Virus record (IMG/VR): IMGVR_UViG_2711768074_000019
Strand: one strand, 5' to 3'
Length of the DNA: 4,078 nucleotides
From: a virus
Taxonomy: Duplodnaviria > Heunggongvirae > Uroviricota > Caudoviricetes
Positions 1-4,078 of this stretch are shown here, piece after piece. Positions within the stretch are counted from its first letter, which is position 1. Each line of letters starts with the position of its first letter. Made by a program: the position numbers and the translations under genes. Below the pieces are notes generated by a model that was given only the letters and a program-made list of their open reading frames with translations, made no database searches and was not told where the DNA came from.

Positions 1-83
1 TAGTCATGTGGGATGGCTGGTTCAGACTTCAGGATATGGTTGAGGGTTACCTGGTGATGAAGTCTCTTGATCAGGAGATCTGA
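1..83 (+). CDS. IS4-family (IS50-like) transposase, C-terminal fragment; the 5' part lies outside the window
   Basis: Seen: in-frame codons from position 3 translate to VMWDGWFRLQDMVEGYLVMKSLDQEI, then stop. Recalled Tn5 Tnp tail ALWEGWEALQSKLDGFLAAKDLMAQGIKI aligns without gaps (W-[DE]-G-W, LQ, [DE]-G-[FY]-L, K-x-L, terminal I). Identity is only about 40 percent by eye. Confidence 0.65.
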   Translation, partial: VMWDGWFRLQDMVEGYLVMKSLDQEI

Positions 84-92
84 TCAAGAGAC
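62..92. repeat. Palindrome inside the IS end (13-bp arms 62..74 and 80..92, 5-nt centre) carrying three GATC Dam sites
   Basis: Seen: gtctcttgatcag / gagat / ctgatcaagagac, with GATC at 69..72, 77..80 and 82..85. The same structure is mirrored at 3985..4015. Knowledge: the IS50 inside end is regulated by Dam methylation of GATC sites. Confidence 0.6.
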
Positions 93-182
93 AGCCGCAC
101 AGGGGGATTCACCATGCCAGTTTCTTTTAACAAACTCCCCGCAAAACAGACAACTGTCAACCGTCTGAATTGTGAGACATTT

Positions 183-206
183 AAAAAAAAGCCCGCAAAA
201 GCGAGC
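183..206 (-). terminator. Rho-independent terminator closing the minus-strand tRNA transcription unit
   Basis: Seen: the minus-strand RNA reads GCUCGC-UUUU-GCGGGC (6-bp stem with one G.U pair, from 206..191) followed by eight U (complement of A183..A190). Confidence 0.7.
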
Positions 207-221
207 CAGGGAAAATAAGTG

Positions 222-298
222 TGGCGCGTTGTACTGGATTCGAACCAGTGACCGATTGCTTAGAAGGCAATTGCTCTGTCCGGCTGAGCTAACAACGC
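222..298 (-). tRNA. argO: tRNA-Arg (anticodon UCU)
   Basis: Seen: the reverse complement folds as a cloverleaf with acceptor stem GCGTTGT/ACAACGC, T-loop GGTTCGAATCC, anticodon loop CU-UCU-AA and a 3' GCCA. It closely resembles E. coli argU by eye. The symbol is assigned from its position in an ileZ-argN-argO-like cluster, not from a search. Confidence 0.8.
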
Positions 299-311
299 AG
301 GATACAGATAA

Positions 312-388
312 TGGACCGCCTTCGGGGACCCGAACTCCGCGCAACCAGCTTCGAAGGCTGGCGCTCTTTCCTGATGAGATAATGGCGG
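312..388 (-). tRNA. argN: tRNA-Arg (anticodon UCG), with an atypical T-arm
   Basis: Seen: acceptor stem CCGCCAT/AAGGCGG (one A-A mismatch), anticodon stem-loop CCAGC-CTTCGAA-GCTGG and a 3' TCCA. The T-loop is TTCGGGT (G where A58 is normally conserved) and the T-stem has one mismatch. The symbol is assigned from cluster order only. Confidence 0.65.
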
Positions 389-395
389 TATGTGA

Positions 396-471
396 TGGTG
401 GCCCTTGCTGGATTTGAACCAGCGACCTGGCGATTATGAGTCGCTCGCTCTCACCACTGAGCTAAAGGGCC
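396..471 (-). tRNA. ileZ: tRNA-Ile2 (anticodon CAU, lysidine type); formally tRNA-Met cannot be excluded
   Basis: Seen: GGCCCTTTAGCTCAGTGGTGAGAGCGAGCGACTCATAATCGCCAGGTCGCTGGTTCAAATCCAGCAAGGGCCACCA, with a perfect 7-bp acceptor stem and anticodon CAT. It is near-identical in layout to E. coli ileX/ileY as recalled. It is the first gene of the Ile-Arg-Arg cluster. Confidence 0.8.
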
Positions 472-480
472 GCGCGCAGA

Positions 481-510
481 ATAATAACGTTACGGAATTA
501 ATACTGCAAT
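481..510 (-). promoter_or_regulatory. Candidate sigma70 promoter for the tRNA cluster
   Basis: Seen on the minus strand: -35 TTGCAG (510..505), 18-bp spacer, -10 TATTAT (486..481), then a GC-rich discriminator (GCGCGC) about 9 nt before the tRNA-Ile 5' end. Inference only. Confidence 0.4.
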
Positions 511-520
511 CTCATCCGTT

Positions 521-1570
521 TCAAACGATTAAATCCTGAACTTCCCTGACTGTCTGCTCAAAACGTCCGGTCTCCAGCTCAACACCAATCGCACGACGCC
601 CCAGTGCCATCGCCGCTTTTACCGTTGAACCCGACCCCATGAAAAAATCCGCAACCAGATCACCAGGACGACTACTTGCGCTGATTATCTGCTGCAGCAT
701 TTCTGCCGGTTTTTCGCACGGATGTTTCCCTGGATAGTACTGCACCGGTTTATACGTCCACACATCGGTGTACGGCACCTGCACCGTCACACCGAAATAC
801 CGCCGCAAATTTTTATATTCACTCAGCAGTTCCATATACTGCCGGTTCAGCTCACTGTATGTGCTGACCAGCTGGTGGTGTGGCTTTTCCAGTTCCCCGC
901 GCTGATGTTTCTCTTCTGCCACCCGGGCAAACAACGCCTGCAATTTGTTGTAATCACCCTCGTTCGGTAACTGCCACTGACTGGTACCAAACCAGTGCGA
1001 AGCCATGTTTTTCTTTCCGGTGGCTTCCGCTATCTGTTTTGACGTTATTCCCAGTGATTTACGCGCATCACGAAAGTAAGAAATCAGCGGGGCCATGACG
1101 TGCTGTTTTAGCTCGCGCCCCTGTGCCACATAGCCATCATCTTTCGGGCGATACGGTCCCTGATAATGTTCTGCAAACAGAATGCGCTCTGTTGCCGGAA
1201 AATACGCCCGCAGACTTTCCTTATTGCACCCGTTCCAGCGTCCGGACGGCTTCGCCCAGATAATGTGGTTCAGCACATTAAAGCGCTCACGCATCATGAT
1301 TTCGGTGTCAGATGCCAGGCGATGACCACAGAACAGGTAAAAACTTCCGGCAGGCTTCAGTACCCGCCAGAACTGCGCCAGACACTGGTCCAGCCATTTC
1401 AGGTAATCATCGTCGCCCTCCCACTGGTTATCCCAGCCCTCGGGCTTCACTTTAAAGTATGGCGGGTCTGTGACTATCAGATCGACAGAGTTTTCCGGTA
1501 AGGTCTGGATAAATTCCAGGCAATCAGCGTTGATTAACTCACAACTGGATATTTTTACAGTATTAGCCAT
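521..1570 (-). CDS. Beta-class DNA amino-methyltransferase (N6-adenine or N4-cytosine), orphan within this window
   Basis: Seen in the 349-aa ORF: N-terminal DLIVTDPPY (motif IV), HPCEKP, and C-terminal DLVADFFMGSGST (FxGxG AdoMet motif I). Motif IV before motif I is the beta-class order. The central region carries an HTH-like LGITSKQIAEATGK. No endonuclease gene is nearby. Confidence 0.85.
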   Translation of the reverse strand: MANTVKISSCELINADCLEFIQTLPENSVDLIVTDPPYFKVKPEGWDNQWEGDDDYLKWLDQCLAQFWRVLKPAGSFYLFCGHRLASDTEIMMRERFNVLNHIIWAKPSGRWNGCNKESLRAYFPATERILFAEHYQGPYRPKDDGYVAQGRELKQHVMAPLISYFRDARKSLGITSKQIAEATGKKNMASHWFGTSQWQLPNEGDYNKLQALFARVAEEKHQRGELEKPHHQLVSTYSELNRQYMELLSEYKNLRRYFGVTVQVPYTDVWTYKPVQYYPGKHPCEKPAEMLQQIISASSRPGDLVADFFMGSGSTVKAAMALGRRAIGVELETGRFEQTVREVQDLIV

Positions 1571-1711
1571 AGATCAATAAGCACTTCTCTGATAGGCTCA
1601 TACCGCTTTTGCGCAAAGCAGATGGGCCTGAGGTTTGCTTGTGACCCCAACGCATGAGCAGATGGCTGGCAGGTGCCGCTAACACCCACCAGCCGCCCAT
1701 TACCACAAATT

Positions 1712-1733
1712 AAAAAACCTTCACTGAGGAAGG
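1712..1733 (-). terminator. Weak hairpin plus U-run overlapping the stop codon of the small HTH ORF; possible attenuator or weak terminator
   Basis: Seen: a 5-bp stem CCTTC/GAAGG (1718..1722 with 1729..1733) and a 6-nt loop. On the minus-strand RNA it is followed by six U (complement of A1712..A1717). The stem is short, so this is weak. Confidence 0.3.
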
Positions 1734-1918
1734 CGTCTGTAACAACCGAACTGATAATCTGCCAGACCCGCCATAACAAGCTGAGTCAGTATTAACTGGC
1801 AGCGTTCGCGTGAAAGGTAAGTATTCTGCGCAATTTCCCCGACGGTCGCCGGTTCGGTGACGCTTAATTCATTAAACACCACTCTGGCGGTTTCGGTCAT
1901 ATCCTGCTGTTTTAGCAT
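1721..1918 (-). CDS. Small hypothetical protein (65 aa) with a predicted helix-turn-helix
   Basis: Seen: internal ATG at 1918..1916 preceded by AAGGG about 8 nt upstream. Product MLKQQDMTETARVVFNELSVTEPATVGEIAQNTYLSRERCQLILTQLVMAGLADYQFGCYRRLPQ. The segment ATVGEIAQNTYLSRERCQLILTQL looks like an HTH; this is inference from the pattern. The longer track ORF (to 2041) starts at GTG directly against the terminator and is less plausible. Confidence 0.45.
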   Translation of the reverse strand: MLKQQDMTETARVVFNELSVTEPATVGEIAQNTYLSRERCQLILTQLVMAGLADYQFGCYRRLPQ

Positions 1919-2041
1919 GCCTTTTTCCCTTTTCCGGTTAACGTGACATACCAATACCTCTTGTCGAAAAAGCCAGCAAGCTGAAAGACCGGCATTCGCA
2001 ACCACCAGCGCATTTAACGTCCTGTACCGCTTTTCGGGCAC

Positions 2042-2069
2042 AAAAAAACCCGCATAAAGCGGGTTCTTT
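2042..2069 (-). terminator. Strong intrinsic terminator (hairpin usable on both strands) about 85 nt downstream of the Q-like gene; tR'-like
   Basis: Seen: stem CCCGC/GCGGG (2049..2053 with 2059..2063, extendable by two A-T pairs) and loop ATAAA. The minus-strand RNA is followed by seven U (A2042..A2048); the plus strand is followed by TTCTTT. Confidence 0.75.
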
Positions 2070-2153
2070 CAGGTGTCCATGTCTGCTATTCGCCTCGCGG
2101 TATAGCTTTGCGAAGCGTAGCTGGATTGAAACAGTTTATGCGTAAAAAATCAA
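2070..2153 (-). promoter_or_regulatory. Candidate late promoter and Q-utilisation region (pR'-like) between the Q-like stop and the terminator
   Basis: Seen: a weak candidate -35 TTGATT (2153..2148, overlapping the stop codon), 17-bp spacer, -10 TTCAAT (2130..2125). This -10 lacks the conserved A at position 2. Placed mainly by analogy to the lambdoid Q-pR'-tR' layout. Confidence 0.3.
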
Positions 2154-2704
2154 GACATTTTTTGAGCAAACGATTCTCGCATAGGGATGTATAGCGCATA
2201 TTCAGCAACAGCCAACCAATTAGCAATTCGCTTTTCGCATGTACTAAAACACCATTCCGGGTGCACCTCATTCAACAATTCAGCCATTTTGCGTTTACTC
2301 ATCCCCCGCCCTTCGTATCTTTGCCGCAGGATATCAATCAATCCAGGATAACGTGCAAGCGCTTTACTTATCACCCCATCAATGCGTAACGCCTCTGCAT
2401 CAGTACAGTGAGACAACCAGCTCTTCTGTCTGCCAGCGATCATCTCTCGCAAGAATGCTTCCAGCTCTGGTTTATCAATCCCTGACTCCCTGATTCTACG
2501 CAGGGCTTCATTGATCGCGGTTTTTGTCAGTTTTTTGGATGTCAGCAACTGATTGAACATATTTCCTGGTTTGCCACCACCTATGTACGACCAACGCCCC
2601 CACATCCGTAATTTCCCCTGGATCCAGACGGCTTCCAGCGTTTTTAGACGTAAATGCTCGCCGCTTTTGCCTGTAATTTCCGGGTATATCATATTTACGA
2701 TCAC
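2150..2704 (-). CDS. Putative late-gene antiterminator Q-like protein
   Basis: Seen: a 184-aa ORF starting at GTG 2704..2702, which overlaps the RusA stop (GTGA); an alternative ATG lies at 2692..2690. It contains LRMWGRW, reminiscent of the L-x-R-W-G-x-W N-terminal motif I recall in phage 82-type Q. Synteny also fits: RusA then Q, as in DLP12 and phage 82, followed about 90 nt later by a strong terminator. No domain search was run. Confidence 0.5.
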   Translation of the reverse strand: MIVNMIYPEITGKSGEHLRLKTLEAVWIQGKLRMWGRWSYIGGGKPGNMFNQLLTSKKLTKTAINEALRRIRESGIDKPELEAFLREMIAGRQKSWLSHCTDAEALRIDGVISKALARYPGLIDILRQRYEGRGMSKRKMAELLNEVHPEWCFSTCEKRIANWLAVAEYALYIPMRESFAQKMS

Positions 2705-3060
2705 TCACTCTCAATTTTGTAAATCTTCACGCCCAGCCGCCCCCCAGGAACGAGCTGACCGCGCACAATATTAATTTCATCAAACTGCTCGTCGTCTATG
2801 AGAAGTCCGGCATGCGTCAGCGCATCCAGTGGTGCTTTCAGGATATTGTCCAGGTCACGACGACGCTTATCCGGTGGCTCTGCAATAATCTTTATCGCCA
2901 GCCGTCCGGACAGGTTTAATTTCAGCCGCTGCTCGCGAACAATTAGCGCCACATCCCGGCGATAACGCTCACCGGCTTTTGATACAAAATATGTGTTGTC
3001 ACGACGTCGCCAGTAGGTGTTCACCGTTGGCGGGTAAGGCAAAACAAACTCTATACGCAT
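2701..3060 (-). CDS. rusA: Holliday-junction resolvase RusA (crossover junction endodeoxyribonuclease)
   Basis: Seen: 119 aa with LPYPPTVNTYW, DKRRRDLDNILKAPLDALTHAGLLIDDEQ and GGRL, matching the RusA signature and its acidic catalytic residues. SD AAGAGG lies 6 nt upstream of ATG 3060..3058. Confidence 0.9.
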   Translation of the reverse strand: MRIEFVLPYPPTVNTYWRRRDNTYFVSKAGERYRRDVALIVREQRLKLNLSGRLAIKIIAEPPDKRRRDLDNILKAPLDALTHAGLLIDDEQFDEINIVRGQLVPGGRLGVKIYKIESE

Positions 3061-3072
3061 CAGTAACCTCTT

Positions 3073-3978
3073 TTACCCAAGCACGCCGGTTGCAAAGGCG
3101 TGATCAAGAAAATGAAAAATTAAATCAACCTGGGAACCATGCTTTTCTTCGAATGCCAGCGGATCCGCATGAAGCTCGTTGTGATGTTCCCGACACAGCG
3201 GTAGTGTGAAAATATCGTGGGATTTTGTTCCCATTCCACCCTGACCGTGGCCTATCAGGTGGTGGGCATCATCAGCAGGCTTTCCGCAACATGCGCACGG
3301 CTGCGTCTTAACCCAGCGCGTGTACTTTTCATTAACCCAGCGGCGACGTTTTGGGCGTAACATAAAAGACTCCGGCGACTCCGGATCCACTTTCAGCGCC
3401 AGCACCTTTTTCGCCTTATCCTGGATGATGCTGGTGGCAGGAACCGAAGGCACAAGGTCACTTTCCCGGGTAACAGACGGCACAACAGGCTTCGGTAATC
3501 TCAGTGCCTTACGGGCTGCACTTTCCGATAAGGCATCCGCCAGATCATTACGAATCAGCCACCAGCACAGTTCCGGCATTGTCACAACGTGACTGTCGTC
3601 AAAACCGAGCTCCCGACGCACAACAGACAACACCCAGCGGGCACAGTTATCCGTTGCCATTGATTCCAGCCGTTCCGTGAACTGATCGCGCAGCTGGTTA
3701 TCGCAGTGCCAGCACAGACGGATTGCGCCCGGAGCGTGTCGCATTGTGGTCATGTTCTCGCTGTGCCAGTTGGAATGAGGCCACTGACAGCCCTTTTCAC
3801 GAAGTAACCAGCTTTCAAGACATTCCACGCCACCAGCACGACGGATCACTGCCTCATTGCGGAACACGGCCCGAACGGCAGGATCATCCGCCAGCGGTTG
3901 TGATGCCGCCGGAACGGCACCACTGGCAAAAGATGAATAACGTTCCGGCTCAGGCTCCAGCAGGACACGCCCCTGCAT
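3073..3978 (-). CDS. DUF968 / YdfU-like prophage protein with a C-terminal HNH-like zinc-binding nuclease domain; possibly N-terminally truncated by the IS
   Basis: Seen: 301 aa. The C-terminus PCACCGKPADDAHHLIGHGQGGMGTKSHDIFTLPLCREHHNELH has the Cys/His spacing and G-x-GTK element of HNH-like prophage nucleases (compare DLP12 YbcO as recalled). The ATG at 3978..3976 is only 5 bp from the IS end. Confidence 0.55.
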   Translation of the reverse strand: MQGRVLLEPEPERYSSFASGAVPAASQPLADDPAVRAVFRNEAVIRRAGGVECLESWLLREKGCQWPHSNWHSENMTTMRHAPGAIRLCWHCDNQLRDQFTERLESMATDNCARWVLSVVRRELGFDDSHVVTMPELCWWLIRNDLADALSESAARKALRLPKPVVPSVTRESDLVPSVPATSIIQDKAKKVLALKVDPESPESFMLRPKRRRWVNEKYTRWVKTQPCACCGKPADDAHHLIGHGQGGMGTKSHDIFTLPLCREHHNELHADPLAFEEKHGSQVDLIFHFLDHAFATGVLG

Positions 3979-3982
3979 AAAC

Positions 3983-4078
3983 CTGTCTCTTGATCAGATC
4001 TCCTGATCAAGAGACTTCATCACCAGGTAACCCTCAACCATATCCTGAAGTCTGAACCAGCCATCCCACATGACTACC
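3983..4078 (-). mobile_element. Second, inverted copy of the IS50-like inner end; transposase on the minus strand, again reading towards the cargo
   Basis: Seen: 3983..4076 is the exact reverse complement of 1..94. It begins CTGTCTCTTGATCAGATCT at 3983..4001 and runs off the window edge. Confidence 0.75.
3994..4078 (-). CDS. IS4-family (IS50-like) transposase, C-terminal fragment (second copy)
   Basis: Mirror image of feature 1..83, with stop codon TGA at 3996..3994 on the minus strand. Confidence 0.65.
   Translation of the reverse strand, partial: VVMWDGWFRLQDMVEGYLVMKSLDQEI

Follow-up and report, generated by a model that had tools for sequence, protein, structure and literature searches.

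A prophage ydfU-type gene truncated by an ISEc13 insertion, with an internal ATG probably exposed by chance at the junction

When an insertion sequence (IS) ends a few bases in front of an open reading frame (ORF), has it cut into a longer gene, or does it now supply the signals by which that frame is transcribed and translated? The question is raised by a stretch of DNA, here called the window, whose 4078 bp make up an entire draft contig of Escherichia coli (CYGG01000169.1, assembly GCA_001284325.1). On the minus strand of the window, the end of an ISEc13 transposase gene and the start of a 301-amino-acid frame of the DUF968/ydfU type read …Q E I TGA S R D R F ATG Q G R…, with the transposase stop (TGA, 3996..3994) and the DUF968 ATG (3978..3976) in the same frame and 15 nt, or five sense codons, apart. 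An earlier note on this DNA had pointed to the arrangement, and its coordinates for the stop, the IS end, and the ATG, together with the shared frame, all hold on a base-by-base reading. Judged from the DNA itself, this is very probably an ordinary ISEc13 insertion scar that truncates a prophage ydfU-type gene, the ATG being an internal methionine codon exposed by chance. Scars of this kind, left by an IS in a decaying prophage, are already known.

ISEc13 is an IS50-like member of the IS4 family, present in thousands of E. coli records. The window contains only 94-96 nt of the element at each end. The right-hand copy (3983..4078, minus strand) is the inside end (IE), which carries the 3' end of the transposase gene, and all 96 of its 96 nt are identical to copies annotated as "IS4-like element ISEc13 family transposase". 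It includes the last 27 transposase codons (VVMWDGWFRLQDMVEGYLVMKSLDQEI*) and the terminal 19 bp at 3983-4001, an IS50-type terminal repeat that reads CTGTCTCTTGATCAGATCT on the plus strand, starting at 3983. The transposase stop lies within this repeat, 11 nt from the IS end, a distance that is constant at every ISEc13 insertion site. The insertion breakpoint falls between 3982 and 3983, and four prophage bases, GTTT (3979..3982, minus strand), separate the IS terminus from the ATG, which is therefore 4 nt away from it. Translated from 4077, the minus strand gives VVMWDGWFRLQDMVEGYLVMKSLDQEI*SRDRFMQGRVLLEPEPER. The SD-like sequence AAGAGACAGG, which the earlier note had placed inside the IS terminus, does draw its first nine bases from the IS; its final G (3982) is prophage-derived.

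At 99.9% identity, the interior of the window (95-3982) matches a lambdoid prophage of E. coli O55:H7 RM12579, which served as the uninterrupted, empty-site reference. The match breaks off exactly at both IS termini, and its right limit, 3982, corresponds to position 6889 of the RM12579 prophage segment. At the other end of the window, the left-hand IE end (1..94, plus strand) is a perfect inverted copy of 3983-4076 (94 nt, 100% identity), and the unique part of the contig amounts to 3888 bp, stopping in one multicopy repeat at either side. Short-read contigs typically stop in such repeats.

On the minus strand, the truncated gene (3073..3978) is followed by rusA (2701..3060), the next gene of its operon, which encodes a RusA family Holliday-junction resolvase (Pfam PF05866, E=5e-15; RefSeq annotation of the RM12579 prophage). 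Next come a gene for a DUF1133 protein, a Q-like antiterminator (2150..2704; PF06576, E=1e-102; PF06530 Phage_antitermQ, E=2e-6), which is annotated as 180 aa with a start at 2692, and an N6/N4 DNA methyltransferase gene (521..1570; PF01555, E=9e-45). The Phage_antitermQ match of the DUF1133 protein is marginal, with a score of 28 bits where the cutoff is 26; at the position that this protein occupies in the window, unrelated types of Q are found in other prophages. Three phage tRNA genes (222..471; CAU, Arg-UCG, and Arg-UCU, called by ARAGORN, RefSeq, and Rfam) complete the minus-strand set, and an Rfam scan of the window gave these three tRNAs and no other match. The CAU tRNA (396-471) is assigned to Met by ARAGORN and to Ile by RefSeq; like its counterparts in Stx phages, it is probably a lysidine tRNA of the ileZ type. 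The tRNA-Arg(UCG) (312-388) scores 33.8 bits in Rfam against a threshold of 29, far weaker than both of its neighbours. A minus-strand, terminator-like hairpin at 2047-2067 (AACCCGC-TTTAT-GCGGGTT, then a T-run) lies about 85 nt past the Q-like gene and was noticed by eye, the scan remaining silent, and two further hairpins resembling intrinsic terminators are found on the same strand at 1734-1717 and 207-190. These hairpins are candidate late-operon terminators on which the Q-like protein might act.

That the IS truncated a longer gene, one of the two possibilities raised by the earlier note, is shown by the empty site and by the conserved N-terminus of the family. In RM12579 the DUF968/ydfU coding sequence (CDS) is 990 bp long, encodes 329 aa, and has its own GTG start and GAGGTG ribosome-binding site. 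Its start region reads …GCTGAGGTGACC GTG AGA GCA CTA CTG … CCC CTG TTT ATG CAG GGG CGT…, with GAGGTGACC preceding the native start, and the ATG of the window is codon 29. The intact CDS begins 84 nt (28 codons) upstream of the window ATG and 80 nt beyond the junction, and the IS entered codon 27 between its second and third bases (CT and G). Lost to the insertion were the GTG start, the GAGGTG ribosome-binding site, and 28 N-terminal codons; Met29 is the first in-frame start codon past the junction, and the 301-aa product corresponds to residues 29-329 of the intact protein.

Homologues elsewhere tell the same story about length. The alternative that 301 aa is the full length, which the earlier note had named as a refutation, is contradicted by the usual family length of 329-330 aa among 1568 homologues, with query coverage of 100% down to 66% identity. 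The alignment to full-length DUF968/YdfU homologues that had been proposed as a check finds the 28 N-terminal residues missing from the window protein. When phage genomes were searched with the 329-aa query (tblastn), coverage was at least 80% in 173 of 178 records, and the alignment began at residue 1 or 4 in 29 of 30 phage records drawn from the whole of the ranking, with Klebsiella, Morganella, Vibrio, and P1-like phages among them. A complete Stx2a-converting phage carries a 990-bp ydfU directly after the replication genes. The 301-aa form, recorded as E. coli CTZ98718.1 / WP_053904821.1, occurs on one contig only among about 15 billion proteins, and the cluster to which it belongs has 1892 members, mostly of 329 aa.

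The missing residues are a conserved part of the protein. In an alignment of 13 sequences, M1, R2, L4, L5, P7, G14, V16, P20, G21, and F28 are kept in at least 90% of sequences, and this full-length signature (MRxLLxP…G.V…PG…F) is absent from the window protein, in which residues 1-28 are gone. Met29 is not a conserved alternative start, because position 29 of the same alignment is Met in close relatives only and His or Arg in more distant members. An AlphaFold2 model of a full-length homologue (23-sequence alignment) has a mean pLDDT of 63, with values below 50 for residues 1-54 and a confident region at about 60-190.

Downstream of the junction, the protein retains the features of its family. 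The 301-aa ORF matches PF06147 (DUF968) with E=7.4e-78 over residues 132-298, in addition to a sub-threshold match to HNHc_6, and the invariant C256/C258/C259, H267/H268, C290, and H294/H298 are retained; the catalytic C-terminal domain is intact. DUF968 and DUF1364 form group 7 of the His-Me finger superfamily, which includes YdfU and YbcO (PMC5714182), and an Orf-like N-terminal domain occurs in some of the DUF968 members from Gram-positive bacteria (PMC4118853). The sole amino-acid difference between the remnant and RM12579 is P for T in SV(P/T)ATS at about residue 210 (near window position 3346), P being the family consensus. The homologue set also contains several singleton DUF968 proteins of 390-526 aa with extra, unrelated Pfam domains, which may be fusions from other rearrangements, frameshifts, or annotation run-ons.

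How surprising is it that the exposed ATG should lie so close to the IS and in the frame of the transposase? The intact gene offers 987 possible insertion points. For 5.5% of them there is an in-frame ATG no more than 5 nt from the junction, the frame is shared for 33%, which agrees with the one-in-three chance given in the earlier note, and both hold for 1.8%. The shared frame and the nearby ATG are best taken as a modest coincidence, noticed in hindsight at a junction with a single occurrence, although with an expectation of about 1.8% selection for a junction competent in reinitiation is just conceivable. The shared frame itself has no role in reinitiation and would matter for readthrough only.

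In the preferred account, ISEc13 would have transposed into codon 27/28 of the DUF968/HNH gene in a lambdoid, Stx-phage-like prophage of an E. coli strain, and the position of the ATG and the shared frame would both be due to chance. Any expression of the remnant, rusA, and the Q-like gene that is left would then need transcription passing through the IS or coming out of it, and the remnant would be translated either by weak de novo initiation or through reinitiation by ribosomes that have just terminated on the transposase 15 nt upstream, opening the hairpin at the IS terminus. Such expression is probably very low.

The hairpin in question is a perfect 13-bp stem with a 5-nt loop (3985..4015, minus strand), which was detected as an inverted repeat, appears in the minimum free energy structure, and is formed by the terminal 31 nt of the IS. 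By itself it is worth -20.1 kcal/mol. It includes the transposase stop, in its 3' arm, and the AAGAGAC part of the SD-like element, of which the bases CAAGAGAC have an unpaired probability of about 0. Three GATC (Dam) sites, at 3992, 3997, and 4005, also fall within it. The corresponding palindrome in the DNA (GTCTCTTGATCAG-N5-CTGATCAAGAGAC, at 62-92 and 3985-4015) has bases 3-15 in common with the terminal repeat; in IS50L, the outer arm alone is present. The palindrome could act as an mRNA 3' stabiliser, as a second transposase site, or as an insulator.

Translational coupling as the actual basis of the arrangement is unlikely. Ribosomes that end at the transposase UGA would open the hairpin and start again 15 nt further on, at the AUG, and the truncated protein would be made in proportion to transposase translation. 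The short distance between stop and AUG and the location of the stop within the 3' arm of the hairpin favour this proposal, and bacterial ribosomes are known to reinitiate over short distances even where the SD is not strong. IS50-type transposases are, however, very poorly translated; the coupling would be a passive by-product of the junction and no designed feature, and the common frame counts for nothing here.

A quite improbable alternative is that the inside end of ISEc13 works as that of IS50L does in Tn5, giving an outward promoter, a ribosome-binding site, or both to the truncated DUF968 gene, rusA, and the Q-like gene. The geometry is suggestive, since two inverted IS50-like copies have their IE ends facing in. 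The inside end of IS50L does drive the kanamycin gene of Tn5, and the IS50R-like state gives drastically less transcription of the Tn5 core (PMC9330008), so the analogy in the earlier note is sound as regards Tn5 itself. It does not transfer to the window, where ISEc13 is without the hexamers of IS50L. For this comparison the IS50L-neo junction sequence, which occurs exactly in more than 200 plasmids with aph(3')-IIa, was aligned to the window. The terminal 20 nt of the ISEc13 end match, base for base, the IS end that precedes aph(3')-IIa in Tn5, a further point in favour. In contrast, the -10 hexamer of IS50L, TAAGGT, which is made by a single base change (the ochre change), is GATGGC in ISEc13, and the -35 hexamer TTGCCA is CGCCCC. 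Both ISEc13 ends of the window have the intact GAT codon, that is, the IS50R-like state, from which there is little outward transcription in Tn5. Literature searches returned catalogue mentions only for ISEc13, no matches for the IS50L ochre change, and primer and vector mentions only for the 19-bp end.

Other signals point the same way. A consensus scan found no sigma-70-like promoter in 3800-4078, in the last 96 nt of the IS, or in the whole of ISEc13, though as a crude and insensitive match it also failed to flag the element's own transposase promoter; a weak outward promoter may exist in the ISEc13 end. The same insensitive scan found no promoter-like site in the 51-nt gap upstream of native ydfU, which fits the membership of native ydfU in the early-right operon that its gene order suggests. 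No terminator-like site was found at the IS end by scanning, and therefore transcripts that arise in or upstream of the IS could enter the truncated gene, so that read-out transcription is possible. As for translation, the purine-rich GAGACAGG lies 3-10 nt before the window ATG, where it forms the best nearby anti-SD duplex, but this duplex reaches only -3.6 kcal/mol, compared with -6.9 at the native start and -6.5 at rusA, and its 5' part is locked in the hairpin. Moreover, the junction occurs once only, which gives no sign of selection. With the hexamers not conserved and no sigma-70-like site found, an IS50L-type promoter was rejected, and the broader suggestion that the IS now supplies the signals of the gene finds no backing in the bases of the IS end, where the SD is weak and for the most part paired.

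A composite transposon, in which two ISEc13 copies and a 3.9-kb interior carried a phage late-control module (the Q-like gene, the methylase, and the tRNAs) to a new site, is very doubtful. The two perfect inverted IS ends do have a Tn5-like geometry. The left junction (94/95, IS followed by CCGCACAGG…), however, agrees at 120 of 120 nt with an ISEc13 insertion carried by a prophage of the enteropathogenic strain (EPEC) E2348/69, and that copy is a complete simple insertion with its own 8-bp target duplication, CCGCACAG, relative to the RM12579 empty site. The full ISEc13 occupies 5510-7060 of the E2348/69 segment and encodes a transposase of 457 aa, and the comparison of this filled site with the empty site in RM12579 sets the IS terminus independently of the window. 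E2348/69 carries about 30 copies of ISEc13. The outer IS ends of the window and their flanks lie outside the contig, and no other genome was found in which the interior is flanked by ISEc13 on both sides. The right junction had no match in 5426 complete E. coli genomes (megablast) and no exact-pattern match in GTDB representative genomes or JGI metagenomes. Spread or mobility as a unit is not suggested, because the right junction is absent from the genomes and metagenomes searched. The "cargo" of the earlier note, like the composite transposon that it evokes, is an unproven interpretation of a draft contig that simply ends in a repeat at both sides.

The simplest reading of the pair is that two independent ISEc13 insertions occurred in one prophage and are by chance inverted, with their inside ends facing in; an IS-mediated inversion may instead have produced the two junctions, since it would yield the same ones. 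The insertion in E2348/69 is at the same base and in the same orientation as the left ISEc13 and has different neighbouring genes; the shared insertion points either to common descent, with later recombination between prophages, or to a hotspot for insertion. The left ISEc13 lies just downstream of a phage tRNA-Arg and a terminator, which is the stx2AB slot of Stx2-converting phages. The target duplication in E2348/69 (5500-5512 and 7058-7070 of its segment, set against 2990-3010 of the RM12579 segment) is apparently 8 bp (CCGCACAG), compared with the 9 bp typical of IS50. The outside end of ISEc13 in that strain (5510-5560 of its segment) reads CTGTCTCTTATACACAAAT and is followed immediately by an 11-bp stem, CACAAATCCCC…GGGGATTTGTG; two positions separate this end from that of IS50, and two likewise from the engineered mosaic end of Tn5.

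The most far-reaching proposal joins several of these elements. It takes the inverted ISEc13 pair to be a nascent Tn5-like transposon able to mobilise an Stx-type phage late-control block (Q-like antiterminator, DNA methylase, three tRNAs, and rusA), with the truncated HNH gene expressed by read-out and by termination-reinitiation, and is highly improbable.

That the right junction is an assembly chimera has a very slight probability: a short-read draft contig that ends in a many-copy repeat invites the suspicion, but the break falls exactly at the IS terminal base on both sides, as in a true transposition junction, and on this ground a chimera was rejected. Stop-codon readthrough into a transposase-HNH fusion protein, which the earlier note had called formally possible, has a probability close to negligible and was likewise rejected: its one argument is the shared frame, with five sense codons between the two ORFs and a one-in-three prior for the match, and against it stand the lack of any recoding or stimulatory signal, a UGA-U stop context (a comparatively efficient terminator in E. 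coli), an identical ISEc13 stop 11 nt from the end at every insertion site, and a downstream ORF that is foreign DNA and that, with the junction, is found on a single contig.

The ORF finder and the public annotation (WP_053904821.1, 301 aa) present an IS-disrupted remnant as an intact gene with a tidy ATG, and a draft contig that ends in one repeat at both sides can mimic a composite transposon with its "cargo". For the strain, the likely effect of the insertion is loss of ydfU function or polarity on rusA and the Q-like gene, a further step in the decay of the prophage. The importance of the case is small, and would be modestly greater only if the IS pair were mobile as a unit or if the IS end drove the phage late-control genes.

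Several known systems share parts of this arrangement. Among members of the YdfU (Qin prophage)/DUF968 family (group 7 of Jablonska et al. 2017), the window protein has the full PF06147 domain and the CxxC…HH…CxxHHxxLH motif, and its gene likewise occupies a nin-region setting beside rusA and Q; in contrast to the members of 329-330 aa and 349 aa, it is without the 28 conserved N-terminal residues. The ISEc13 insertions of E2348/69 have the same IS end, and the left junction of the window is the same insertion between the phage tRNAs and an esterase gene, whereas the right-hand insertion into ydfU is in none of the 5426 complete E. coli genomes. IS10 (pOUT), IS1999, ISEcp1, ISAba1, and others resemble the window in that an ORF begins right beside an IS end and reads in the same direction, but those elements with outward or hybrid promoters have a mapped -35 or full promoter in the IS end and a selected phenotype (PMC9330008), neither of which is present in the window. 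Tn5, where the inside end of IS50L drives the kan-ble-str operon, also has features in common with the window. Both have an IS50-group element whose transposase gene runs toward its inside end and stops within the terminal repeat, the last 20 nt of the two elements (AGATCTGATCAAGAGACAGG) are the same, and the copies at the two sides, represented in the window by 94-96 nt each, are inverted with their inside ends facing in. The promoter hexamers of IS50L, TTGCCA and TAAGGT, are nevertheless missing from ISEc13, and nothing points to selection or mobility for the arrangement in the window. In Tn5 the neo ATG lies 17 nt past the IS50L end, after GGATGAGGATCG in the transposon's own central DNA, whereas the ATG of the window is an internal codon of a broken gene.
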